Of a stretch of 64,000 nucleotides of DNA, positions 22,525 through 56,300 are shown one piece after another. The stretch covers positions 100,733 through 164,732 of the forward strand of contig JBNASD010000001.1 in assembly GCA_049720225.1 (NCBI GenBank), read 5' to 3'. Position numbers and translations under genes: made by a program. This stretch comes from Microgenomates group bacterium. Lineage in GTDB: Bacteria > Patescibacteriota > Microgenomatia > PFEM01 > JBNASD01. Numbering within the stretch: the stretch's first letter is position 1; every line of letters starts with the position of its first letter. The notes under the pieces were generated by a model. That model was given only the letters and a program-made list of their open reading frames with translations. It made no database searches and had not been told where the DNA came from.

Positions 22525-22571
22525 TAAAATTAAGTATAGCAAAAGAAAGGCGAACGAGTAAATAAAAAAAT

Positions 22572-22655
22572 ATGCCGGGAAGAGATAAATAAAAATAATA
22601 ATGGTGTGCTTCGCTTTGGAAGCTCCCCCCCAAAAAAACTATCTCTTCCCGGCAA
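22572..22655 (-). terminator. Nested-hairpin intrinsic terminator with a 15-bp outer stem and an inner GCTTC/GAAGC stem
   Basis: tgccgggaagagata...tatctcttcccggca lies directly downstream, on the minus strand, of the 22665..23006 gene. Confidence 0.5.
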
Positions 22656-22664
22656 ATAAAAATC

Positions 22665-23006
22665 TTACCCAGAGCAAATCGTCGCCATCGTGACGATTGC
22701 TCCAATTCCGAGAATAATCTGCCCCACGCGCAACAAAAACACACCCGGTATCCACAGGGCGTATTCATCATTCATTGCTGTCTCTACCGAAAATTTCCAT
22801 GGAGGCGCGCACACCACCGCGCCTTGCACACTCTTGACCAAATCCTTTTCGGAAGAACTGCTCTTTTCAATGATGACAAAAATGGTCCTTCCGGGCAAAA
22901 GGAGGCGTCTTCCCCTCCATGCGAGATTTATCAGGAATTGAGGGATAATTCCCAATTCCATGATCATCAATCCCACCAAGATCAAAATTATGCCGAAGCC
23001 TTCCAT
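22665..23006 (-). CDS. Small hypothetical membrane protein (113 aa), compositionally GC-rich
   Basis: A strong RBS 'aaaaaggaggg' sits 7 nt upstream of the ATG (MEGFGIILILVGL...). GC is about 48% versus about 32% in the flanks. It has two or three TM segments. Confidence 0.5.
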   Translation of the reverse strand: MEGFGIILILVGLMIMELGIIPQFLINLAWRGRRLLLPGRTIFVIIEKSSSSEKDLVKSVQGAVVCAPPWKFSVETAMNDEYALWIPGVFLLRVGQIILGIGAIVTMATICSG

Positions 23007-23170
23007 TTTCAAACCCTCCTTTTTTTAAATGTGCGGCTAATTTGAATTTTACCCCAAAACCAAAAAATATTCAACATTATAGGTTTAAAAATAAAATTTT
23101 GATTAGTATTAATAATTTTTTTCTGGTATAATATTTTGTGTTCTTTGAAAATTAAAGTTAATCCGATCGT

Positions 23171-23224
23171 GGGTCCGTATCCGCCAGCCGGCGGACAACT
23201 GGCGAACTTTTAAGCAGTTGTTAT
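23171..23224 (+). pseudogene. tRNA-Lys-derived fragment, 5' acceptor 9 nt plus anticodon-loop/3'-stem 14 nt with a GC-rich palindromic insert
   Basis: gggtccgta...cttttaagcagttg is identical to segments of the adjacent intact tRNA-Lys. It lacks the D- and T-arms. Confidence 0.5.
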
Positions 23225-23297
23225 GGGTCCGTAGCTCAGAGGTAGAGCAGCTGCCTTTTAAGCAGTTGGTCGAGCGTTCGATTCGCTCCGGACCCAC
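23225..23297 (+). tRNA. tRNA-Lys (anticodon TTT)
   Basis: GGGTCCGTAGCTCAGAGGTAGAGC...anticodon loop CUUUUAA...GTTCGATTC...CGGACCCA. Confidence 0.85.
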
Positions 23298-23318
23298 CCT
23301 ACCCTAGATCCACCTTTC

Positions 23319-23392
23319 GGCCCCGTCGTCTAGCGGCCTAGGACGTCAGCTTTTCAGGCTGAAGGTCGGGGGTTCGAATCCCCCCGGGGTCA
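23319..23392 (+). tRNA. tRNA-Glu (anticodon TTC)
   Basis: GGCCCCGTCGTCTAGCGGCCTAGGACG...anticodon loop UUUUCAG...GGTTCGAATCC...CGGGGTCA. Confidence 0.85.
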
Positions 23393-23449
23393 CTTTTTGA
23401 AAGCGGTGTCTTCTTAACAATCGGTTCCAAACTTTAAAGGAGGTGGCTT

Positions 23450-23668
23450 ATGTCTTCGAGATGTCCTGCTTGTGGTGGAACTGGCAGGCAGAAAGATGGC
23501 GAGTATCTTAAGGAAAGAGATTGTCGAGTTTGTGGAGGAACAGGAATATTTTCCTCCACATCAACTTCTGACGACAATTGTCTGAGGTGCGAAGGGAGAG
23601 GTTGGTATTTCAGCGATCAGGGTTTACCCACAATTTGTACCTGCAGGAGAGCACGAAAGAAAAAATAA
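23450..23668 (+). CDS. Small standalone zinc-finger protein with three DnaJ-type CxxCxGxG repeats
   Basis: Contains CPACGGTG, CRVCGGTG and CLRCEGRG, with the RBS 'aaaggaggtggctt' upstream of the ATG. It is GC-rich relative to the genome. Confidence 0.55.
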   Translation: MSSRCPACGGTGRQKDGEYLKERDCRVCGGTGIFSSTSTSDDNCLRCEGRGWYFSDQGLPTICTCRRARKKK

Positions 23669-23670
23669 AT

Positions 23671-23769
23671 AAAAAAGCCCGAAGTAATATGGAGGGTAAT
23701 CAAATAATGGAGCATAGCGCTCTACAATTTTATTTTGATTACCTTCTTTTAAAACTTCGGGCTTTTTTT
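23671..23769 (+). ncRNA. Structured element A: triple-nested hairpin (outer AGCCCGAAGT/ACTTCGGGCT, middle GGTAATCAAA/TTTGATTACC, inner GAGC-AUAGC-GCUC) ending in a T-run. It is a terminator or small-RNA candidate.
   Basis: Perfect inverted repeats with a T7 tract. Element B has the same architecture and the same AUAGC apical loop, with compensatory stem changes. Confidence 0.45.
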
Positions 23770-23817
23770 ATTTTTAACCACTTTTATTTGCAAATTATCC
23801 TATAATGTGATATAATA
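23770..23817 (+). promoter_or_regulatory. Promoter module copy 1: TTGCAA, a 17-nt spacer, then an extended -10 TGaTATAAT
   Basis: -35 at 23788-23793 and -10 at 23811-23816. A 55-nt block is nearly identical to 24389-24443. Confidence 0.55.
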
Positions 23818-23981
23818 GCCTTGATTTAAGATAAAAAAGAAATTGAATTTTTGTTCTTTGAAAATTTAAAAAAATTCTTTATCCGAATCGGTAACCTTTT
23901 GGGCATTAATAAAAAATTAATAAATTAGTGTTCAAAAAGTTGCCGATTCGGGCACAATCTTGGAGTTGGAGGTGAAGAAGA

Positions 23982-24293
23982 ATGGCGCTCCGATTATTGA
24001 TCCCCACAACAAGGTTTGCGATCGCACAGTGGTTGCCCCATGGAGAAGAGACACCGATAGTGGTGGTCGGAGGAAAGTGGAACAATGTCGTCATCAGGCA
24101 TAATCCAAAAGGGATGACGGGGCTACTCAGTATACAGAGGGGATTTCCCCTCTCCGTAAGGTCTCTCACGATAGTCGTAAACGGAGACCCAGCGAGGATC
24201 ACTTTCATCTTCTTGGAGCGTCTTCCAGACACAATCCACGTACCGGAGGAATTGAAGAGGTACCTGAAGTTTGAGCAGGTGGTGAAGAGGTAA
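23982..24293 (+). CDS. Hypothetical protein (103 aa), GC-rich
   Basis: RBS 'ttggaggtgaagaagaATG'. Flanked upstream by promoter module 1 and downstream by element B. The antisense 108-aa ORF is disfavoured because it lacks an RBS or terminator. Confidence 0.45.
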   Translation: MALRLLIPTTRFAIAQWLPHGEETPIVVVGGKWNNVVIRHNPKGMTGLLSIQRGFPLSVRSLTIVVNGDPARITFIFLERLPDTIHVPEELKRYLKFEQVVKR

Positions 24294-24295
24294 AC

Positions 24296-24396
24296 CGAGA
24301 AAGCCGGGAATAAAGAGGATATTTAACTCACCCCTGACATAGCGTCAGGAAAAAGGATGAGTTTTATATCCGATTTACACTTCCCGGCTTTTTTTA
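24296..24396 (+). ncRNA. Structured element B: nested hairpin (outer AGCCGGGAA/TTCCCGGCT, GGATAT/ATATCC, inner CCTGAC-AUAGC-GTCAGG) ending in a T-run
   Basis: Same topology and apical loop as element A, and immediately followed by promoter module copy 2. Confidence 0.45.
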
Positions 24397-24443
24397 TTTT
24401 TAACCACTTTTATTTGCAAATTATCCTATAATGTGATACAATA
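24389..24443 (+). promoter_or_regulatory. Promoter module copy 2: TTGCAA, a 17-nt spacer, then TACAAT
   Basis: -35 at 24414-24419 and -10 at 24437-24442. It differs from copy 1 by 1-2 nt. Confidence 0.5.
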
Positions 24444-24564
24444 TCCTTTACTATACATTTAAAAACAAAAGGTAAGATTTAATAATTATGGAAAGAAAAA
24501 GAGCATCCTTTATGGAGTTTTAGAGCGTATAATCGAAAGTGTCGGTATAATAGCAATAAATAGT

Positions 24565-25155
24565 TTGATAAATGACGCGCTCAAAACTTTAGAAAGAAAA
24601 AAAGATCTTTTTCAATCAAATTCGGCAGAAGAAGTCACGATAGAAAGTTTTTATAACAGTTTACTTAGTTTTTTCAAATTTTTTTCTAAAAAATCTTCTG
24701 GAAAATCTCCGGAAGAATTTTTAAAGCAAATATCTCAAGAGTGGAATAATGGCGCCAATAAGTTTACCGATTTAAATAAAGGAAAAATCGAAAGATTAGG
24801 ACAAATAATTATGGGTGGTTATAAGGGGTTGCTATGGTTATATAAAAACCCTTCTTGGCTAATTCATTTAATTGAATTAATGACTTGGGATTTATTTCAG
24901 CGTGTAGGAAAAGACCCTGACTCTAAATTATTTTTAATTTTGTTAACTGTCGGATTAGTTGAAGAAGAAGAACTCTCACTCCCTGAGCTTTATTCTGATA
25001 AACTAAAAGCAAAAGGGGAATATATAGCCTCCTTAATTAACTGCAATAAACCAGAAAGAGAGGAATCGCTTCGATTACCCGAATTAATTAAAAAAATTTT
25101 CTCTTCAGATTTACTAACTTACTCTCCTTCGGTTTTTGGTTATTCTTCAAATTAA
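24565..25155 (+). CDS. Hypothetical protein (about 196 aa, start uncertain)
   Basis: ORF downstream of promoter copy 2 with AT-rich, host-like composition. No recognisable motif. Confidence 0.35.
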   Translation: MINDALKTLERKKDLFQSNSAEEVTIESFYNSLLSFFKFFSKKSSGKSPEEFLKQISQEWNNGANKFTDLNKGKIERLGQIIMGGYKGLLWLYKNPSWLIHLIELMTWDLFQRVGKDPDSKLFLILLTVGLVEEEELSLPELYSDKLKAKGEYIASLINCNKPEREESLRLPELIKKIFSSDLLTYSPSVFGYSSN

Positions 25156-25240
25156 ATATTTCTTTAAAATTTTCTTCCCCAATAGCGTGTTTTGTTTATT
25201 TTTCGAAAAATAAAAAATTTTTAAATATAATTTTATAATA

Positions 25241-25356
25241 AAAAAACGCCTGAGGTTTTTTAAGTAAAGAGTTTTGATTTAAGATAAGAGTTGCTTAAAT
25301 TATAACTCTTATCTTTTTTTAACTCTTTACGACTTCAGGCGTTTTTTGTTTTTTTC
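25241..25356. terminator. Bidirectional nested-hairpin terminator between convergent genes
   Basis: Outer stem aaaacgcctgaggt/acttcaggcgtttt, middle GTAAAGAGTT/AACTCTTTAC, inner GATAAGAGTT/AACTCTTATC. There are T/A runs on both sides. Confidence 0.55.
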
Positions 25357-25366
25357 AGAGGTCCAA

Positions 25367-25831
25367 TTATCTTAAGACCCCCGAAAACAGGAGCAACAAC
25401 TTCAAGAGTAATGCTTGGATAAAAGACAACTTAGCAGGAAGCAGTTGCATTTCAACTGCCCTGCTAAATATATCCGGAATCGCCCAATTCCACAAAATCA
25501 TCGTCAAAACCACCGCCAAGAAGAAGAAACCGACCTTGGCAAATATCATAAAGAGGCGCCAACCAAAAGTTTCCTCTCCATCTTCATCATCTAGGGGTAG
25601 TCTCCCCATCCCCAATACCACAAGTAATAAACACGTCTTGATCGTTTGGGCTGTGGTTAATGTTGCGGGTATGATACCCGCATTAACCAAGGTTGGTAAA
25701 AACCTGGGCATCAGTTTTGCCCACACCCACTGGAATAAAAAGATAGCAATGAAGAAACACACGAAGTAGACTAAAGCCTTCCCCACAATCATTAATGCCA
25801 TTTCCCGAAGTTCTTCTGCTTTTTCGTTCAT
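25367..25831 (-). CDS. Hypothetical membrane protein (4 TM) with an acidic loop
   Basis: RBS 'ttggaggtgaaagATG' on the minus strand. Contains hydrophobic helices and the loop 'LDDEDGEETFGW'. Confidence 0.5.
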   Translation of the reverse strand: MNEKAEELREMALMIVGKALVYFVCFFIAIFLFQWVWAKLMPRFLPTLVNAGIIPATLTTAQTIKTCLLLVVLGMGRLPLDDEDGEETFGWRLFMIFAKVGFFFLAVVLTMILWNWAIPDIFSRAVEMQLLPAKLSFIQALLLKLLLLFSGVLR

Positions 25832-26313
25832 CTTTCACCTCCAAATTTAAAATGGGATTTCGGACACGAATAATTTTTAAAAGTGCAAAATACGATCCTT
25901 TTCCTAACGTATTAAATTATACCATTAAGAATTTAAATGTCAATATTATAGGATACTATAGTAAAAATTTCTTAACTGTTTATAACCCTTAAATAAAGTT
26001 ATAAAGACTTTAAATATAGAGAAAAATTAGAGTTTAAAATTATAATTCTTTAGAAATGGAAATGAAGAGAATAGCTTCAATTTAGACTTATATTGCAGGC
26101 TTTTTAAATTAGTAATGGAATTTTTTAAGCGTCTAAATCGGAGATTTCATAAATATGAAGAAAAAAGAAGTTATTATTAAAAATTTATTTTTTCCTAAAA
26201 TTTTTATGCAAAAAGAAAAAATAAATAAAAAATTTCAGATCAATAGTTAGTCTTTAATAATTTTTAATCTAAAAAATATTAGAAAAAAGAAATACCTTTC
26301 TTTTGGATGTTTT

Positions 26314-26913
26314 TCATGCTTTTTTAATCCCGAACTCCTCCCCATGCCCCGGAAAAATAATTGTTTGGGGAGGTAATAAAAAAATTCGCTTAATTGATTT
26401 TTCTAAATCCTTGTAAGAACTATAAGAAAAATCGGTTCTCCCTACTCCATCAGCAAAAATTAAATCCCCAGAAAAAAGAAAATTTTCTGCCAAAAAACTG
26501 ACACTTCCTGGAGTATGACCGGGAGTAAATAAAACTTTTATTTTTTCTTTTTGAAAAACAATTTCTTGACCCTCTTCTAAAAATTTATCCGGCGGTAAAA
26601 TTGGCTCTGGATTTATACCGGTAAAAAATTTTGCCGATTGGGAAGCTCTTTTTAAAAGAAATAAATCTTTTTGATGAATTAAAAAGGGAATATTAAAGAC
26701 TAACTTCAATTCCGTTACTGCTAAAATATGATCAAAATGGCCGTGGGTAGCTAAAATGAATTTAGGAGAAAAACCTAATTGGTTAATTTTTTCAATGAGA
26801 TATTCTCCATCGTCTCCCGGATCAATGATCACTCCTTCATTACTTTCTTCCTCCCAAACTAAATAACAATTAGTCCGTAATTGACCAACAACTATCTTTT
26901 CAACTTTTATCAT
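26314..26913 (-). CDS. MBL-fold metallo-hydrolase (glyoxalase II-like)
   Basis: Has the 'ATHGHFDH' metal-binding motif and a later 'PGHTPGS' histidine. Confidence 0.8.
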   Translation of the reverse strand: MIKVEKIVVGQLRTNCYLVWEEESNEGVIIDPGDDGEYLIEKINQLGFSPKFILATHGHFDHILAVTELKLVFNIPFLIHQKDLFLLKRASQSAKFFTGINPEPILPPDKFLEEGQEIVFQKEKIKVLFTPGHTPGSVSFLAENFLFSGDLIFADGVGRTDFSYSSYKDLEKSIKRIFLLPPQTIIFPGHGEEFGIKKA

Positions 26914-26926
26914 TTTTAAAATCTTT

Positions 26927-27241
26927 TTAAACTTTTACTGCCGCTTTTCCTACTCTTTCCCGAAGATAGTAAAGTTTTGCCCGGCGTACCTTTCCTTGTT
27001 TTTTGACTTTTATTTTTTCAATCCAGGGAGAATTTAACGGCCAAATTCTTTCAACTCCAATCCCGCCGGTGGCAATTTTTCTTACCGTAAAGGTTTTGTT
27101 TTCTCCCCTTCCTCGAATGGCAATGACAATTCCCTCAAAATTTTGGATTCTCGTTTTTCCTCCCTCAATAATTTTTTGGGAAACAATTACCGTATCCCCT
27201 ACTTTAAAAGTGGTATCCTTAAATTTTGCCTGATTAGCCAT
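26927..27241 (-). CDS. rplS: 50S ribosomal protein L19
   Basis: '[22 protein letters not shown]...[21 protein letters not shown]' matches the L19 consensus. Confidence 0.9.
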
Positions 27242-27388
27242 GAGGAAATTCTATCAAGAAAAAGAAAAAAATACAAGGGAAAAATTTATTGATACTATAA
27301 GTTGAAAATCCAAAAAATTTAAGCTATAATAATTTTCGGTACCTTGAAAGTAGTCGTTCGAACAAGTTTGTATTAAAGGAGGGAGAAA

Positions 27389-27592
27389 ATGTGGAGGCGT
27401 ACCGCTGAATGCGAGAAGAGCAGAAATGGACAATATTGTCCAAGGGGGTCTGAATGTCCAATGACGGGACGTCGGGTAGAAAAACACAGAGGTGGAAAGT
27501 GTAGGTTGGGACCATACATTAGAAATCCTGAATGCTGGAGGAGGGATGAAATGGATTTCCCTCCCTACTATGATTATGAGAGCGAGTTATAA
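27389..27592 (+). CDS. Small Cys-rich hypothetical protein (67 aa), GC-rich
   Basis: RBS 'aaggagggagaaaATG'. It has 5 Cys and Arg/Trp-rich segments, and is followed 20 nt later by the next gene. Confidence 0.45.
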   Translation: MWRRTAECEKSRNGQYCPRGSECPMTGRRVEKHRGGKCRLGPYIRNPECWRRDEMDFPPYYDYESEL

Positions 27593-27612
27593 CGTTAGGA
27601 GGAGGCTAGACT

Positions 27613-27840
27613 ATGAAATATACATATCGTACATCTAAAGGCGACGGATATACCTTAGTTTACGGTGAAGGAAAATTTGTAGAGGAAGTTAAATTTGAGA
27701 CTATGTGTCTCACTTTTGAGGAAATGGTAAGCCACCTCAAAAGAGAGCATGGAATAAAGCATCCGACGTTTTCGATTATCTACACGTCGAGGGGCAGGTT
27801 TTGGACGCCGGATGATGGAAAACATATAGTTCCGGCGTAA
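27613..27840 (+). CDS. Small hypothetical protein (75 aa), co-operonic with the 27389 gene
   Basis: RBS 'ttaggaggaggctagactATG'. Terminator D lies immediately downstream. Confidence 0.45.
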   Translation: MKYTYRTSKGDGYTLVYGEGKFVEEVKFETMCLTFEEMVSHLKREHGIKHPTFSIIYTSRGRFWTPDDGKHIVPA

Positions 27841-27846
27841 TGTAGG

Positions 27847-27937
27847 AAAAAGGGGGGAAGTTTTTTCCCAAAAAGGCATCAAGATTACTTGATGCTGTTC
27901 TTATAAGGTAAAAACTTCCCCCCTTCCCTTTTTTTAA
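27847..27937 (+). terminator. Nested-hairpin intrinsic terminator D
   Basis: Outer stem aaaaaggggggaagtttttt/aaaaacttcccccctt, inner GCATCAAG/CTTGATGC, then T7. Confidence 0.55.
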
Positions 27938-28331
27938 ATTCTAGATTTTTTTGTACTTGGTTGCGAATTCATTTCGCGAATTTTGACTAATTCTCTATTT
28001 AATTTTTTATTTTATGAATATTTTTTATTTTTTTATAAAATATTGGTATGTCTTTTTAATATCCCTTTTTTATTTCTAAGGTATCTTGCTAATTTTTATT
28101 CTTTATAATAACCCTACTGATAACACTAAAATCAAGTAAATTCTATCAAAGATAAAGAGAAATAAAAAAGAAAAGAGAGAATTTTTAATTTAAAATCCTA
28201 TAATGTTGAAATTATTGTTTTTTTTGATATAATATTGTTATTGGCACATTGACAAAAAGAAAATTCTCTCCAATTTTATTGGAGTTTAAATATAACATTC
28301 TCCCTATTTAACGCAAGACAGGAGGTGAATT

Positions 28332-28625
28332 ATGTTTCGGGCGATACTTGAGTTGTTTTGGTCAATTTTGAAGGGGTTGGTAAAGTTAGCATGGGGATTG
28401 ATAGTGATAGTTTCTGGACTCTTAGTTTTGATTGCTCTTTTCACTTGGGGCGGAGTGTTTACAGATTCTTCTATCCCGGGGCAGAATGCTGTTAATACGT
28501 TGTGGGGCGATATTGTGATATTCCCTACCACATGGGGAGATGCATCGGCCTACCAACCAACAGGGCTGGGTTTGGCTTTGTTGGTGGTGATAGTTTTCTT
28601 TGTTCTTTTGATTCTCGCCGGTTGA
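28332..28625 (+). CDS. Small membrane protein (97 aa, TM-loop-TM), GC-rich
   Basis: RBS 'gacaggaggtgaattATG'. It has two long hydrophobic helices around a Gly/Trp-rich loop. Confidence 0.5.
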   Translation: MFRAILELFWSILKGLVKLAWGLIVIVSGLLVLIALFTWGGVFTDSSIPGQNAVNTLWGDIVIFPTTWGDASAYQPTGLGLALLVVIVFFVLLILAG

Positions 28626-28644
28626 GTAAAGGAGGTGTTACGAT

Positions 28645-28918
28645 GTTTGATATTCCAGAAATTCCCGGAAAGGTAGTAGGATTGGCCATTTTGGCTTTTA
28701 TAGTGGTTTGTTTGGGAAGTATAATGCTTCTTTTCGGCGGGAATGTGGAAAAAAACCCGCTAGCGATCGCTATGGCAGATATTGGTGATTGGCTTACGCC
28801 GGGCGATACGGGAGTTTGTTACCCTTCCGATACTTTTGCGATCCGACATAATGGAGCGGCGTTCGTATTTACGGTTGGGGTGATACTTTTTATATTGATA
28901 CTCTTCTCGTTTAGATAG
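28645..28918 (+). CDS. Small membrane protein (91 aa, TM-loop-TM), a paralogue-like partner of the 28332 gene
   Basis: RBS 'gtaaaggaggtgttacgATG' sits 19 nt after the upstream stop. It has the same TM-loop-TM topology. Confidence 0.5.
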
Positions 28919-28929
28919 AGGAGAACATT

Positions 28930-29020
28930 GGGGGGGAAGAAAAAACTTTTAACAAGGTGTCACCAAATTTTTGCGGTGACAATCTTAAGAAAAAGTTTTT
29001 CTTCCCTCCCCCCTTTTTTT
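28930..29020. terminator. Bidirectional nested-hairpin terminator E between the 28645 gene and pyrG
   Basis: Outer stem gggggggaagaaaaaact/agtttttcttccctcccccc, inner GGTGTCACC/GGTGAC, then T-run. Confidence 0.55.
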
Positions 29021-29027
29021 AATTTTA

Positions 29028-49113: not shown

Positions 49114-52068
49114 TTAAATTACTTCTAAAATTTGGGATATATTATCAAGCCAATATTCTTTGTATTGGTCTATCGCATAAGCTTTATCGTCCGGTTTACA
49201 AAACAAAAGGACTTTAATATTGAAACCATTATGGGAAAATAATTTGTTTTTAAATATTTGGGCAAACCCATCTATTTTTCGATATGCTTCTGTATGTTCG
49301 GTACCTTTAGGGTCAACAAACACAATATAATAATTTTTATTGCTTTTTTCCTTTAACCAAAATATAAAGTCTGGTTTAAAATGCTCTATTTTTTCGGTTT
49401 TTGGATTATACCAAGGAATATAAATTTCGTCGGTAGTTTCGTCTATTTTAGAAAACATCCACCACTCAAATTTTTTATCAAATAAGTTGCCATCTTGGGC
49501 TAAATACTCATCTAACTCTTTAATAAATTTAATTTCACTTTCCTCAATAATAATATGATTTAAATAATCAATTTTTTGTCTTGGTTCGGACAAAATAACA
49601 GGATAATAGTAGTGATTAGGAACATATTTTATTTTTATTCCATTAAGAGGTTGGGAAAATAAATCTATATCTTGTCTTCCTTTTTTAAATAGTTCCAGTT
49701 GTAATTTTTTAGTTTCGTTTTCCTCCTCTTTAATTTTTTTGACCTGTTCAATCTTTTTTAAAAATTCCTCTAATTTTTCAGTTTTGGCAAATTTAATTTT
49801 CTCAAAGTGAACTATAAATTTTCCTTTTTCTACTTTTTCAAAATCTTTAAATTCTTCAGGAATTAAAGAAAAGTGGCTAATAATTCGAGAAAAAATAAGC
49901 TGTGGTTTTTTAATTGATTTTTCTTTTTCAAATTTATAGTAATTTAATGGTTTTTTAAAACTTTTTTTAATTGTATTTAATATTTTAGGTTCTGTTTCAT
50001 AGTTTATTAAAAAAATCCTCTCGTCTCCTAAATACTCAAAATATTTCTTAATTAAATTAAAATCTTCTTCACTTAAGATATAACTTTTAGGTTCTTTTAT
50101 TTCTGCTAAAGTATAATCCGCCGGTTTATAAACCGGCACAAAAAGGGGTAGTTTTTCTGCTTTTTGATTAATAATAAAATATCCTTTAAGGAGATAACCT
50201 TCCTCTTTTCTTGCCTCTTCAAAAGTTTTAATCGTTTCTTCTAAAGCATACGGATTAGTACCAAAAATAAATAGAGTTTCTAACTGAAAGCCAAAATCTT
50301 TAATTTTTTCAAAAACATTTCTTTTAATTTTATTTGCCTGATAAAGATTTTCTAATCTTTTTCTTTCGTTTTTTAAAGGCTCTATTCTTACTCCTCTTCC
50401 TGCTGATTGTAAAACAAATTTTTTTGCTTGTGGCCCTGTCCCAATATTAATGTACAAAATAATATTTGGCCTATTAGAATCCCAACCTTCATAAAAAGTT
50501 CTTGAACCCATCAGGATATTATGATCTGATTCGGGTTGATTAATTTTTTTAAAAGCGCTTTCATTGTCAAAACTTTCAATAATCTCATATCCTTCAAAAT
50601 AATCTTTAAGCCAACCTGAAATATCACCAATTTTAATTAAAGCAAACGGCCTTTCAGAAGTTTTTAACCTAAAAACCATTTCCTGGCGATTTCCGGGGAT
50701 AGTTAAAACTTCAATCGTTCCAAAGCTTTTTGAATTATAAATATCTTCTAAAATGTCTTGATAATTAATCTTTTCTATGAGGTTTTTATCAATCTTAATT
50801 TCTTCTCCTTGAGGAAAAATAACTTTGGAATCTAAAGAAAAAGTATTAATTAATTCTTCTTTTGCGGATTTAAAGACATTTTCTTTTATTTTTCCCTGGC
50901 CAATTTTTTCAATTTGCCTAAAAAACAATTTCAAATCCGCATCTTCAATATTTACCGAATTTACCAAAGTTAAAAGCAAAGGATAATGGTAAAATTTTTT
51001 ATCTATTTTTTTAATTTTATTAGCAAATTTCTTTAAATAACTCAAAAGAATCAATGACTTTAAAACAATTTTTTGTTTTTCGTTTTCGGTAAAATCTGTT
51101 TTATCTTTAAAAGCTTTTATTTCTTCTTGTGAAAGATAAATTCTTTTTCCGTAGCCGTTTTCAATAAAAACTGGCAAATTATAGTTAAAAACTGTTGTTA
51201 AAAAATCCCTTGGGTCAACAAAGGTCGCAGAAAAGTTAAATAAAAAGCCGTTACGAGACATTATTGAATAAATTATCTGTCTCACTGAATCATCCTTTTC
51301 TCCTTTGTGTGCTTCATCAAGAAGAATATACCATCTACCATTATTATCGTAATTTCTAAAATCTAATCTTTTTTCTTTTTGTTCAGTCCAAAGATTATCG
51401 GAGCGGTAATAAAAAATGGTTATTTCTCTATCTTTAAATAAAGAATAACTTCCTCTTTTTACTTCGTCCCATTCTTTTAAGCTTTTAAGATTAATATAAA
51501 AATCACTTCGAGAAGCATTTATTTCTTTGATATATTCTTTAAACTGGTCAATTAAGCCATCTCGATAAGTCAAAAACAAAATATCGCTTTCGGGAATTTC
51601 TTTATTTTTTATTAAAGAATTTAAAATCTCAATGAGTTTCACAATCACTAAAGTTTTTCCAGAACCGGTTGCCATCCAAAAATTCATTCTGTTAACAAAA
51701 TTTTCAAAACTAACTTTATTATCAATTAGCGGATAATATTCTTCTAAAAGTTTTGCTGTTTTTTTACCCTCTTTTTTAGTTAAATCATAATCAGCGCCTT
51801 TTTCTGGATAATTAGAATCAGCTTTATAAAAATTAAAAAGATGCCTTTTTCTTTCTAAATTTACTTCTAATTTTTCTTTTTCCTGATAATCAAACAATTC
51901 CTGATAATATCGCCACAAAATTTTTAAAGCATTTTTTAAAGCCTCTTGTTGAAAATCATAAAGAGATTTTTCCTTTGAAAAACCTTTCAAATCAAAACTC
52001 TGCCAAGCAGTTGGTAAATCTTCAAATCTAATTTCTTTTGCTATATTTTGAAGAATTAGTTTGGACAT
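49114..52068 (-). CDS. res: Type III restriction enzyme Res-like subunit: SF2 helicase/translocase with a C-terminal PD-(D/E)xK nuclease
   Basis: Has Walker A 'MATGSGKTLV', DEAH 'LLDEAHKG', motif VI 'QSAGRGVRI', and C-terminal 'KPDFIFW...VFVDPKG' (PD...DxK). Confidence 0.7.
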   Translation of the reverse strand: MSKLILQNIAKEIRFEDLPTAWQSFDLKGFSKEKSLYDFQQEALKNALKILWRYYQELFDYQEKEKLEVNLERKRHLFNFYKADSNYPEKGADYDLTKKEGKKTAKLLEEYYPLIDNKVSFENFVNRMNFWMATGSGKTLVIVKLIEILNSLIKNKEIPESDILFLTYRDGLIDQFKEYIKEINASRSDFYINLKSLKEWDEVKRGSYSLFKDREITIFYYRSDNLWTEQKEKRLDFRNYDNNGRWYILLDEAHKGEKDDSVRQIIYSIMSRNGFLFNFSATFVDPRDFLTTVFNYNLPVFIENGYGKRIYLSQEEIKAFKDKTDFTENEKQKIVLKSLILLSYLKKFANKIKKIDKKFYHYPLLLTLVNSVNIEDADLKLFFRQIEKIGQGKIKENVFKSAKEELINTFSLDSKVIFPQGEEIKIDKNLIEKINYQDILEDIYNSKSFGTIEVLTIPGNRQEMVFRLKTSERPFALIKIGDISGWLKDYFEGYEIIESFDNESAFKKINQPESDHNILMGSRTFYEGWDSNRPNIILYINIGTGPQAKKFVLQSAGRGVRIEPLKNERKRLENLYQANKIKRNVFEKIKDFGFQLETLFIFGTNPYALEETIKTFEEARKEEGYLLKGYFIINQKAEKLPLFVPVYKPADYTLAEIKEPKSYILSEEDFNLIKKYFEYLGDERIFLINYETEPKILNTIKKSFKKPLNYYKFEKEKSIKKPQLIFSRIISHFSLIPEEFKDFEKVEKGKFIVHFEKIKFAKTEKLEEFLKKIEQVKKIKEEENETKKLQLELFKKGRQDIDLFSQPLNGIKIKYVPNHYYYPVILSEPRQKIDYLNHIIIEESEIKFIKELDEYLAQDGNLFDKKFEWWMFSKIDETTDEIYIPWYNPKTEKIEHFKPDFIFWLKEKSNKNYYIVFVDPKGTEHTEAYRKIDGFAQIFKNKLFSHNGFNIKVLLFCKPDDKAYAIDQYKEYWLDNISQILEVI

Positions 52069-52099
52069 AACAAGTTATAATCCGCTTTTTGTTATTTAC

Positions 52100-53786
52100 T
52101 TAACTCAAATGAAAATAACTTCTTATTTTATTAATACAGTCTATAATTTGCTGAGGTATTTCTTTTTCTAGTAAAGTATTTATCTTTTCTAAAATTTCAT
52201 TTAATCTTTCAGATCCGATCAATTTTTCAAAAGATGTTTCAAACATAAATCTTTGATTTTCACTGCTAAATTCTTTTATCATCTCATCTTTACCTTCATC
52301 TTCTTCATCTTTATCATAGTCATATACTACAAAAAAATCTATTCCATAAATAAGACATATCATCTGATAATAAGGAATGTTCGATTTCCCTCTTGCATAA
52401 ATAATTGTTACTCCATCAAGAGATAAATTTAGTTTTTTTGCTATTTCAATTAAACCGTATTTGTCGTTTGGTCCTTCTAATATAATACATTTATCATCAA
52501 AAAGTATTTGATTATTGTCTCTATAAAAAATTGTTTTATCTTGCTGGTATCTTTTAATTTCATCTAAATGCGCTTCTAAACTTTGTTTTTCTTTGCTAGT
52601 AGATGATTTTTTAAACTGTTTGGATAAATCTTCTGGTCTGGGATAAATATTCTCATCAGTTAATCTTTTAATAGATTTCCAATTACTTAAATCAATAAAA
52701 ATATCTGAATGAGTACTTAAGATATGCTGATATTGAGAAGATTTAATTTCATTAAATAATTTATATTGTAATTGAGGATGCAAATGTAATTCTGGATCGT
52801 CAATTAAAAAAATAATTTCTTCTTTTGATAACTCACTTGTCAATTTAAGCAAAAAGTAGGCAATCACCATCAATTCACCTGAGGCCATTCTTGATAAAGT
52901 AATAATTTTATCGCCTTCTCTTAAAGAAAAGAAGGCGTCATCAAAAGGTTGTCGTAGATTAAAAAGAGATATTTCAAAATTGGTAAATTTTTCTCCAATG
53001 AAATCTTTAATTTTCTCTTTTAATGGATTTATTATCTTTGATTGTTTCGGGTCTTCAACTTTGTTAATAATAAAAGAGTAAATATCTTCCCATTTATTAA
53101 CATACTCGTTTCTTTTATTTATTTTGTAATCTTTAAAAAATCTCCAATTAAGTTCGTCTAAAATCTTTTGGAATGTCGTAAAATAGCCAGGCCTTAAGTC
53201 CTTATCTCTTTCTTTTGAAAAATAAAAAATCCTAGGAAAATTTTCTAAACTATCTTGTCCATAAACTTCAAGCAATCTTTCTTGAATTTCTTTAAACTTT
53301 TCATCCTTTTTAACCCAATACTCATAATTTCGTGTTTCAGTATTTAGTTGAACTTTAAGTGGTACATAATTCGTAGAAATTAAAGGTGGTTTTAATTCAT
53401 CATACTTTTGGTAGCATTCAGGAATAACAATATGTTTTGTAGTAAAAATTGTGGAAAATGCCTTACCTGGTGCAGATTTCTCGCGGTATTTAGCAACAAA
53501 CTTAATTTTTTTTTGATGGCAATTTTACCCAATCTGCAATTTTTAGAAAGAAGTAATCATCAAATTCAACTTCAATTTCTATCGGTTCTGTGTCAGAATT
53601 AAAGTCATCAGGTTTTATTTTGCTCTCTACAAAAGAAAAATTGGTCGCTAAATTTATCGCTTCTAAAATACTAGTTTTGCCAGTTCCATTTTTACCAACT
53701 AGTGTAGTAAAATTTTCTTCAAACTCAATGATTGTTTCGTTTTTAAACTTTCTAAAATTTTTAATTGTTAATTTTTTAATTCTCAT
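52100..53786 (-). pseudogene. OLD-family ABC-type ATPase + Toprim nuclease gene split by a +1/-1 frameshift at an A9/T9 tract (53506-53514). The N-fragment is 53502..53786, the bridge plus C-fragment 52100..53501.
   Basis: The N-fragment carries Walker A 'GKNGTGKTS'. The downstream frame is open for all 76 codons back to the homopolymer. The C-fragment carries 'SGE' signature-like, Walker B/D-loop 'LIDDPELHLHP', H-loop 'LSTHS' and Toprim 'ILEGPND...VVYDYDKD'. Confidence 0.65.

Positions 53787-56300
<2,514 letters not shown>

Follow-up and report, generated by a model that had tools for sequence, protein, structure and literature searches.

Candidate moron-like units of small orphan genes in the core backbone of a Microgenomates bacterium

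The genomes of bacteria of the candidate phyla radiation (CPR, Patescibacteria) are tiny and streamlined, and the ways in which these organisms gain new functions are poorly understood. In a stretch of 64,000 nucleotides from a Microgenomates group bacterium (contig JBNASD010000001.1, positions 100,733 to 164,732; this whole stretch is called the window below), eight small open reading frames (ORFs), here named A to H, lie within 6.5 kb and differ from their surroundings in both composition and expression signals. The reading that we consider probable is that they are eight real orphan genes, organized as six autonomous accessory units resembling phage morons, which were gained only in this lineage at three slots of the core backbone. 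The units, also referred to as cassettes (A; B; C; D; E-F; G-H), occupy the intergenic slots between ruvC and a tRNA pair, between these tRNAs and the gene of an MBL hydrolase, and between rplS and pyrG. They are interspersed with core genes and do not constitute one contiguous island, as had already been recognized in an earlier, sequence-only reading of this region.

Judged by their sequence signals, every unit except B would be transcribed from its own near-consensus sigma-70 promoter, a GGAGG site would provide for efficient translation, and a bidirectional hairpin of about 100 nt would stop read-through into the adjoining essential genes. Acquired coding sequences would in this way have been put under a strong promoter typical of the lineage, with promoter, leader and terminator modules that are probably lineage-native and were duplicated or re-used. 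The region would then be a compact hotspot for the uptake of small-gene units into a core backbone, at least six of them, each self-contained and with strong expression signals, and the combination of foreign-looking coding parts with native control would allow accessory genes to be added beside essential genes without disturbing them.

The eight small genes and their products

The window has an overall GC content of 32.9%, and its 47 backbone ORFs, to which all composition figures refer unless noted, have a mean GC of 0.326 and a mean GC at third codon positions (GC3) of 0.24 ± 0.035. Against this background, GC-rich patches are found at 22.6-23.0, 23.1-23.7, 23.9-24.4, 25.4-25.8, 27.3-27.9 and 28.4-28.95 kb, each of them holding an ORF. 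A to H have a GC of 0.41-0.51 and a GC3 of 0.35-0.64, that is, 3-11 standard deviations above the backbone. The sequence-only reading had announced nine such ORFs, of which its own list contained eight; its coordinates hold apart from the start of the last ORF, which lies at 28643 and not at 28645, and the outlier status it described, 45-50% against about 32%, is real, although the range was slightly too high for the lowest of the set, F (0.41) as well as D and H (both 0.43). As a result that would overturn it, it had named the vanishing of this deviation once amino-acid content is accounted for. After back-translation with backbone codon usage, computed for A to G and leaving out H, a GC excess of +0.05 to +0.13 is retained in A, C, D, F and G; the ORFs thus stay outliers at synonymous sites, B and E weakly so.

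A to H are genuine coding sequences and not structured RNAs. Each starts at an ATG preceded by a Shine-Dalgarno (SD) site and stops 0-15 nt short of a terminator foot, the probability of an open frame given the composition, P(open frame), lies between 1e-4 and 1e-2 in all eight, three-base periodicity is significant in six of them, and the transmembrane (TM) segments of A, D, G and H are well formed. In AT-rich genomes, islands of high GC often turn out to be structured RNAs, and the patches could accordingly be viewed as non-coding RNAs in which the ORFs are incidental. A moderate folding excess over shuffled sequences is indeed seen for A, D and F (z = -2.4 to -4.8), codon usage is near uniform, and the antisense frames of A, C and E are open too. 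However, folding is not in excess in C, E, G and H, Rfam returned tRNAs only at the gathering threshold and chance-level matches only in a permissive scan, and each of the eight ORFs has GGAGG and ATG at its 5' edge and ends in a stop codon at the foot of a terminator. We have rejected the structured-RNA reading on the evidence of ORFs, SD sites and periodicity, and give it next to no weight.

An exact-sequence look-up found A, B, C and D entered as hypothetical proteins, each a singleton cluster in the protein collection; the locus tags of the region, which is part of a contig of 466,595 bp, are of the form ACPLKP_007xx. The same look-up found E, F, G and H missing from the collection, though their neighbours from the same NCBI record are present. 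E to H hence appear to be unannotated in the public metagenome-assembled genome (MAG), possibly because of their atypical composition, and small genes of such composition may be systematically under-called in CPR MAGs, with four out of eight apparently missed here.

As predicted from the sequences, small integral membrane proteins (A, D, G, H) make up the main part of the products, next to two zinc-finger-like peptides rich in Cys (B, E) and two soluble proteins, likewise small (C, F). Gene A (22665..23006, minus strand; ACPLKP_00740; GC 0.48, GC3 0.58) encodes 113 aa with two TM segments and has GGAGG 8 nt before its ATG, a codon periodicity of p = 1.8e-4 and a P(open frame) of 0.0014. Genes G (28332..28625, plus strand; 97 aa; GC3 0.47; periodicity p = 5e-3) and H (28643..28918, plus strand; 91 aa; SD spacing 7 nt; periodicity p = 4e-3) likewise specify two TM segments; gene D (25367..25831, minus strand; 154 aa; GC3 0.52; periodicity p = 1e-5; P(open frame) = 1e-4) has four. 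The adjacent paralogue-like pairs that had been suspected find no support in the sequences: G and H align collinearly without significance (E = 0.3-0.7), and the duplication is instead found within D, which is an internal tandem repeat of a two-TM unit of about 77 aa whose halves are 31% identical over 52 aa (E = 7e-6).

Gene B (23450..23668, plus strand; 72 aa; SD spacing 6 nt; GC3 0.35) contains three CxxCxGxG motifs (CPACGGTG, CRVCGGTG, CLRCEGRG), in line with the DnaJ-type zinc finger assigned to it earlier, yet its Pfam scores remain below threshold, both for PF00684 (DnaJ_CXXCXGXG; 22.3 bits, cut-off 32.7, 1.6e-4) and for Anti-TRAP (24.9 bits, cut-off 32, 2e-5). Its best matches in PHROG have E of about 1e-4, all of them on the CxxC motifs. 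Gene E (27389..27592, plus strand; SD spacing 6 nt; P(open frame) = 0.0097) encodes an Arg-rich peptide of 67 aa that does contain the five Cys residues previously counted. The soluble proteins are C (23982..24293, plus strand; 103 aa; GC 0.51, GC3 0.64; periodicity p = 8e-5) and F (27613..27840, plus strand; 75 aa; AGGAGG 10 nt upstream; P(open frame) = 0.0035), whose single-sequence AlphaFold2 models (pLDDT of 35 and 48.6, respectively) are too poor for use.

None of A to H reaches a curated Pfam threshold. An exhaustive HMMER search of 1.84e9 representatives with C recovered only C itself and, marginally (E = 3.8e-4), P0006, a protein of ASH/DUF1573 immunoglobulin (Ig)-like repeats, so C is possibly Ig-like; for D, the sole match among 5.8e9 proteins was D itself. 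In these exhaustive or near-exhaustive searches, C and D appear to be free of any convincing homologue. We infer that the products are accessory envelope factors or factors of conflict and host interaction; small orphan membrane proteins would be plausible mediators of cell-surface interactions in an episymbiotic lifestyle.

Promoters, leaders and terminators of the six units

A GGAGG core is located 6-10 nt ahead of the ATG in all eight small ORFs, compared to 6 of the 47 backbone ORFs at their listed starts and 10 of 47 when other possible starts are counted as well (Fisher p = 3.6e-5), which bears out the earlier statement that strong ribosome-binding sites mark each small ORF and are rare in the backbone. 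An SD-led ORF in combination with a GC at least 7 points over background and a GC3 of at least 0.38 is confined to 22.6-29 kb in the window, besides one artefact over tRNA genes.

The predicted sigma-70 promoters of the units agree with the consensus at 9 to 12 of 12 positions. The promoter of D (25916..25952, minus strand) has the form CCTATAAT-ATTGACA-16-TGnTATAAT and matches all 12 positions; that of the G-H unit (28197..28233, plus strand) reads CCTATAAT-GTTGAAA-16-TGnTATAAT, and that of A (23046..23083, minus strand) carries the shared box as CCTATAATGTTGAAT. The box common to these three, CCTATAAT-RTTGAMA, abuts and includes the -35 element. With at most one mismatch it occurs three times, against 0.09 occurrences expected and none of 100 shuffles reaching three, and all three occurrences lie at cassette promoters. 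A looser variant is present in the promoter of the E-F unit (27294..27330, plus strand; ACTATAAG-TTGAAA-17-TATAAT), and for C and for hyp196, a 196-aa accessory gene downstream of it (24565..25155, plus strand), CCTATAAT is placed between -35 and -10. No promoter is predicted between tRNA-Glu and B, and B is probably co-transcribed with the tRNAs.

The C unit is flanked by a 91-nt direct repeat with 85% identity and a nearly identical core of about 55 nt. Copy 1 (23748..23838, plus strand) comprises the T-tail of a terminator and the promoter TTGCAA-17-TATAAT and would drive C, copy 2 (24374..24464, plus strand) would drive hyp196; since the repeat includes the promoter, the same promoter is predicted to serve both genes. 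The arrangement is consistent with promoter duplication or with single-crossover integration. hyp196 itself is of native composition (GC 0.31, GC3 0.23) and fits the backbone codon model. The transcript of C would begin with a 165-nt leader, and a 25-bp hairpin (23882..23952, plus strand) is located in this 5' untranslated region (UTR).

Downstream of every unit there is a long hairpin of about 100 nt, folding with z = -5 to -11 relative to shuffles, and the strongest non-tRNA 120-nt folds of the entire 64 kb are all found in this region. Long hairpins had been claimed to bracket each small ORF; this applies on both sides to C only, and the other units have one, at the 3' end. The terminator after A (22570..22657, minus strand; inverted repeat I25; z = -5 to -8), a top-ranked 120-nt fold, would insulate A from the downstream ruvC. 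The one after B (23664..23775; inverted repeat I18) is nested and bidirectional, with z about -10 on each strand, and the nested hairpin after C (24294..24400; z = -8 to -10) is the strongest non-tRNA fold of the window. A further bidirectional terminator separates hyp196 from D (25241..25347; z = -10 to -11). In the third slot, a nested hairpin follows F (27845..27936; inverted repeat I6; z = -5 to -8), and H shares a bidirectional terminator with the convergent pyrG (28925..29020; inverted repeat I24; z = -5 to -6). Two intergenic spacers, 25950-26310 and 27940-28200, with 17-25% GC and without a credible ORF, part the cassettes from MBL and from each other; spacers of this length are odd for a compact CPR genome.

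The sequence-only reading had offered two alternatives, horizontally acquired genes or a distinct expression class of host-interaction peptides, and each seems to hold part of the truth. The second is matched by the near-consensus promoters, the shared box, the SD site of every ORF and the exceptional terminators, its host-interaction role being an inferred one; the first depends on the relatives and on codon usage.

Related loci and the origin of the coding sequences

For comparison, 38 related metagenomic loci were found via holA and 10 via RuvC homologues. They have in common the backbone order (pyrG/dnaE)-rplS-MBL-[tRNA-Glu, tRNA-Lys]-ruvC-p83-holA-cupin-PPDK, in which the pair of tRNA-Lys(UUU) and tRNA-Glu(UUC) (23224..23393, plus strand) is kept and anchors a variable slot between MBL and ruvC. 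In the 44 related loci screened, A to H and hyp196 had zero tblastn matches, and the matches of a blastn comparison of the slot with relatives were confined to tRNAs and backbone genes. L119 is the closest relative (rplS 87.5%, RuvC 85% identity); its MBL-ruvC gap measures 274 nt and contains only the two tRNAs, and at a distance of 19 nt from rplS it has a gene for an FAD-dependent oxidoreductase in the place taken by E-F and G-H in the window. Conservation in all relatives, by which the sequence-only reading could have been overturned, is hence not what we observe. Because the relatives are without A to H, keep the backbone order and, in L119, have empty slots, the cassettes appear to be lineage-specific insertions into a plasticity zone, and their outlier composition together with this absence favours a recent gain.

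Elsewhere the MBL-ruvC slot ranges from 205 to 4,900 nt, and its inserts are unrelated genes of normal composition, encoding a glycosyl hydrolase, a DJ-1-like protein or a GIY-YIG protein. Small GIY-YIG (URI-domain) ORFs are located between tRNA-Glu and tRNA-Lys in L096 (5801-6067), L109 (8474-8731) and L121 (1975-2133), a further sign that the slot serves as a landing pad for mobile or selfish genes. In five relatives (L120, L125, L126, L127 and L128) the 5' end of the contig falls 30-240 nt upstream of ruvC, at the variable slot, which suggests assembly breaks from population heterogeneity at this site. The leader before tRNA-Lys (23170-23223) mimics the acceptor start and the anticodon arm of tRNA-Lys (GGGTCCGTA...CAACTGGCGAACTTTTAAGCAGTTG). 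An integration scar, in the form of a 5' pseudo-copy of the tRNA, was ruled out as its explanation, as the element, with an anticodon-arm-like hairpin at about 2789-2830, is kept in the cassette-free L119; it may be a regulatory or processing element.

One relative, L081 (RuvC 76%), has a single ORF in the same slot, downstream of tRNA-Glu. This ORF90 encodes a 90-aa protein with three TM segments, has a GC of 0.50, a GC3 of 0.69 and an AGGAGG site, and shows no detectable relationship to C or D; a homology with D via an 'FGW..IF' motif was considered and dismissed as not significant (E = 0.05-0.3). The promoter of L081 holds an exact copy of the box, the sole one among 128 fetched loci. Its leader is homologous to that of C over about 110 nt, up to a point just past the 3' foot of the hairpin, and the 25 pairs of the hairpin differ between the two by three double compensatory and four wobble-type changes, with none broken. 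The outer stem of its terminator, moreover, is homologous to that of the hairpin between hyp196 and D in the window (25241-25347). A search with a covariance model built on the leader hairpin recovered no copy besides those in the window and in L081. The comparison points to a regulatory scaffold that is native to the lineage and under constraint, with differing ORFs enclosed.

One might go further and regard this scaffold, that is, the box CCTATAAT-RTTGAMA, the 25-bp leader hairpin and the terminators of about 100 nt, as a conserved docking site at which unrelated GC-rich ORFs are exchanged within a Microgenomates clade. We hold this to be quite a distant prospect; if true, it would amount to a hairpin-delimited, integron-like cassette system of CPR bacteria, with an unknown recombination mechanism and a gene pool that has a codon usage of its own. 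The corresponding mechanistic account, in which some recombinase swaps unrelated ORFs at hairpins and promoter/leader elements that act as recombination or docking sites, would explain why window and L081 share box, leader hairpin and terminator stem around unrelated ORFs, and why their homology breaks off right past the 3' foot of the leader hairpin. A 91-nt direct repeat around the C unit is what a circular intermediate would leave after a single crossover, and the presence of an imperfect palindrome of about 100 nt after each of these small orphan ORFs is reminiscent of integron cassettes. We nevertheless judge this account to be very improbable. A Pfam scan of the window ORFs from 90 aa upward (except for five of 94-141 aa) detected no tyrosine recombinase or any other recombinase but RuvC, and no integrase, transposase or reverse-transcriptase domain, in agreement with the earlier note of missing integrases and transposases. 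The hairpins differ from each other in sequence and are built as A-tract, GC-stem and T-tract, in the manner of intrinsic terminators, and inspection by eye for the attC core (RYYYAAC...GTTRRRY) revealed no obvious R''/R' sites. The cassettes have their own promoters and occur in both orientations, only a single genome is available for comparison, and independent insertions and deletions in a recombination-prone slot offer a simpler account.

What favours acquisition of the coding sequences is their composition at synonymous sites. The GC3 excess consists mostly of G-ending codons (AAG, AGG, TTG, GTG, ACG, CAG) and less of C-ending ones, with G at third positions (G3) at 0.31 versus 0.13, which sets it apart from the preference for NNC codons that translational selection would be expected to produce. 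Under codon models, the backbone describes rplS, MBL and hyp196 far better than a uniform model does. The reverse holds for A, C, D, G and L081 ORF90, for which the backbone model falls short of the uniform one by 0.2-1.0 bit per codon, and the 48%-GC relative L109 makes no better model. In large surveys, orphan genes usually follow their host in GC, and lower values are reported both for orphans that match viruses and for candidates of de novo origin (PMC11293555). With the cassette ORFs 10-18 GC points above the host, these high-GC orphans are atypical, and a de novo origin from intergenic DNA of 12-25% GC is unlikely. Since their synonymous-site composition is non-native, the coding sequences were most likely acquired, as far as can be read from the sequence, from some source of about 45-50% GC.

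Several observations weigh against a gain of foreign genes. Chief among the unexplained points is that composition changes exactly at the ORF edges and that the codon families are those of an AT-rich lineage. Promoters and UTRs have 12-25% GC, like native intergenic DNA, and the switch occurs within about 40 nt of every start codon, a pattern that the simple import of a foreign DNA fragment would not produce. The cassette genes keep AGR for Arg (71%), GGA for Gly (46%), TTR for Leu and ATA for Ile (34%), choices that are unlike those of a typical mesophilic bacterium of 50% GC, and their third positions are shifted mainly from A to G, a shift that could stem from selection or from some local process and not from a foreign donor. 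No donor was found, and the 48%-GC Microgenomates relative L109 was discarded as one on account of its misfitting codon usage (CGS, GGC, ACC). Tblastn of C and D against phages gave no match, and IMG/VR contained neither a relative of A, D or G nor, in its viral contigs, any match to the promoter module. B and E are weak outliers, with an excess of only about +0.02 after back-translation, their high GC being mostly due to their content of Cys, Gly and Arg codons, and periodicity is not significant in E and F. Dedicated global searches for homologues are informative for C and D, and the orphan label of A, B and E to H rests on narrower searches. Finally, homology of the scaffold is seen in two genomes only, the window and L081, in which replacement is not separable from independent gains and losses.

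The unexplained edges keep alive, besides cassette exchange, the notion that A to H are native genes of a high-expression class, i.e. old residents whose GC and G3 are maintained by selection (for example on mRNA stability or structure, or for purine loading in a possible thermophile) or by transcription-associated A-to-G mutation of the coding strand. The lineage-native box, leader and terminators, the coincidence of compositional and ORF boundaries, and the A-to-G shift within AT-lineage codon families, with a G-rich coding strand, all agree with it. The tRNA genes, moreover, have 58-66% GC in a genome of 33% GC, a hint of a warm habitat, which would bear on selection for RNA stability as a force shaping the composition of the cassette ORFs. 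Against it stands the absence of the genes from all relatives screened, including L119 with its empty slots, as does the failure to find a homologue of C or of D. In rplS and p83, native genes with strong expression, GC3 rises to just 0.30-0.31, and native or de novo orphans normally match the GC of the host or fall below it (PMC11293555). On balance we regard a native class as improbable.

A source in CPR phages, with the units as true morons or early takeover genes (for superinfection exclusion or holin-like) that were delivered by a temperate phage whose remaining prophage was lost, seems to us rather unlikely as well. It would account for an architecture that follows the definition of a moron, with own promoter and terminator, deviant GC and differing inserts at a hotspot (PMC2920897), for the clustering of units beside a tRNA pair, for products that are small orphan membrane proteins, and for the weak PHROG matches of B. 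Yet the scanned ORFs of the 64 kb include no gene for phage structure, phage replication or an integrase, PHROG yielded nothing significant for the seven other proteins, the viral searches described above were all negative, and the units are spread over three slots in both orientations. The sequence-only reading had likewise considered phage-derived holin-like or toxin-like genes. Non-native synonymous sites and absence from relatives favour its idea of horizontal acquisition, whereas homology to phage, holin, toxin or defence proteins was not found: A, D, G and H have no holin match in Pfam or PHROG and no adjacent lysin gene, type I toxins (below 60 aa, single TM) are smaller and simpler than these membrane proteins of 91-154 aa with two to four TM segments, and PADLOC returned zero matches for nine window proteins and L081 ORF90.

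Two loci elsewhere in the window were noted in addition. A 134-aa protein encoded at 10248-10652 matches Phage_holin_4_2 (E = 4.6e-15); it lies in a core neighbourhood and adjoins a transglutaminase-like protein. A very AT-rich block at 49114-56288 (26-28% GC), which codes for ResIII, a restriction enzyme of Type III, for a DNA methylase (N6/N4) and for an AAA_15/OLD-TOPRIM protein, has the look of a defence island, its composition deviating in the direction opposite to that of the cassettes.

Comparison with known systems

The probable reading, moron-like units gained in this lineage, can be set against four known types of element. With the GC-rich non-coding RNA islands of AT-rich (thermophile) genomes, the region shares sharp GC patches that adjoin tRNA genes; it is distinguished from them by ORFs with SD sites, by a GC of 41-51% that stays below that of the tRNAs (58-66%), and by the lack of RNA family matches. 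The strain- or species-restricted orphan islets found next to tRNA genes are similar in being short, without homologues and inserted in a variable, tRNA-anchored slot, but the cassette ORFs lie far above the GC of the host, and their expression signals are unusually strong and uniform. As in integrons and in clusters of attC sites lacking integron-integrases (CALIN), small and mostly orphan ORFs of heterogeneous composition are each combined with an imperfect palindrome of about 100 nt, and differing ORFs occupy the same position; unlike in these systems, an integrase was not found, and the cassettes have their own promoters, lie on both strands and are interleaved with core genes.

The closest likeness is to the phage moron, a concept of Hendrix and Juhala, which denotes a gene or gene pair between conserved neighbours with their own sigma-70 promoter, a factor-independent terminator and deviant GC (PMC2920897). 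Single genes or pairs between conserved neighbours, with a predicted promoter and terminator of their own and with deviant GC, are what we find here, and so is an insertion hotspot, in which the slots of L119 are empty and L081 has another GC-rich ORF in the same slot; expression would presumably not depend on the flanking genes. Of the four features that define a moron, three are thereby present, promoter and terminator as predictions, the fourth, residence in a phage or prophage, being absent. Instead, the cassettes are located in the bacterial core backbone, among ruvC, tRNAs, MBL, rplS, pyrG and dnaE, they share a lineage-specific promoter box, their GC deviates upward, and no homologue among morons or phages was found. 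No new principle is needed to describe them: by analogy, the cassettes resemble phage morons, yet they sit among core genes.

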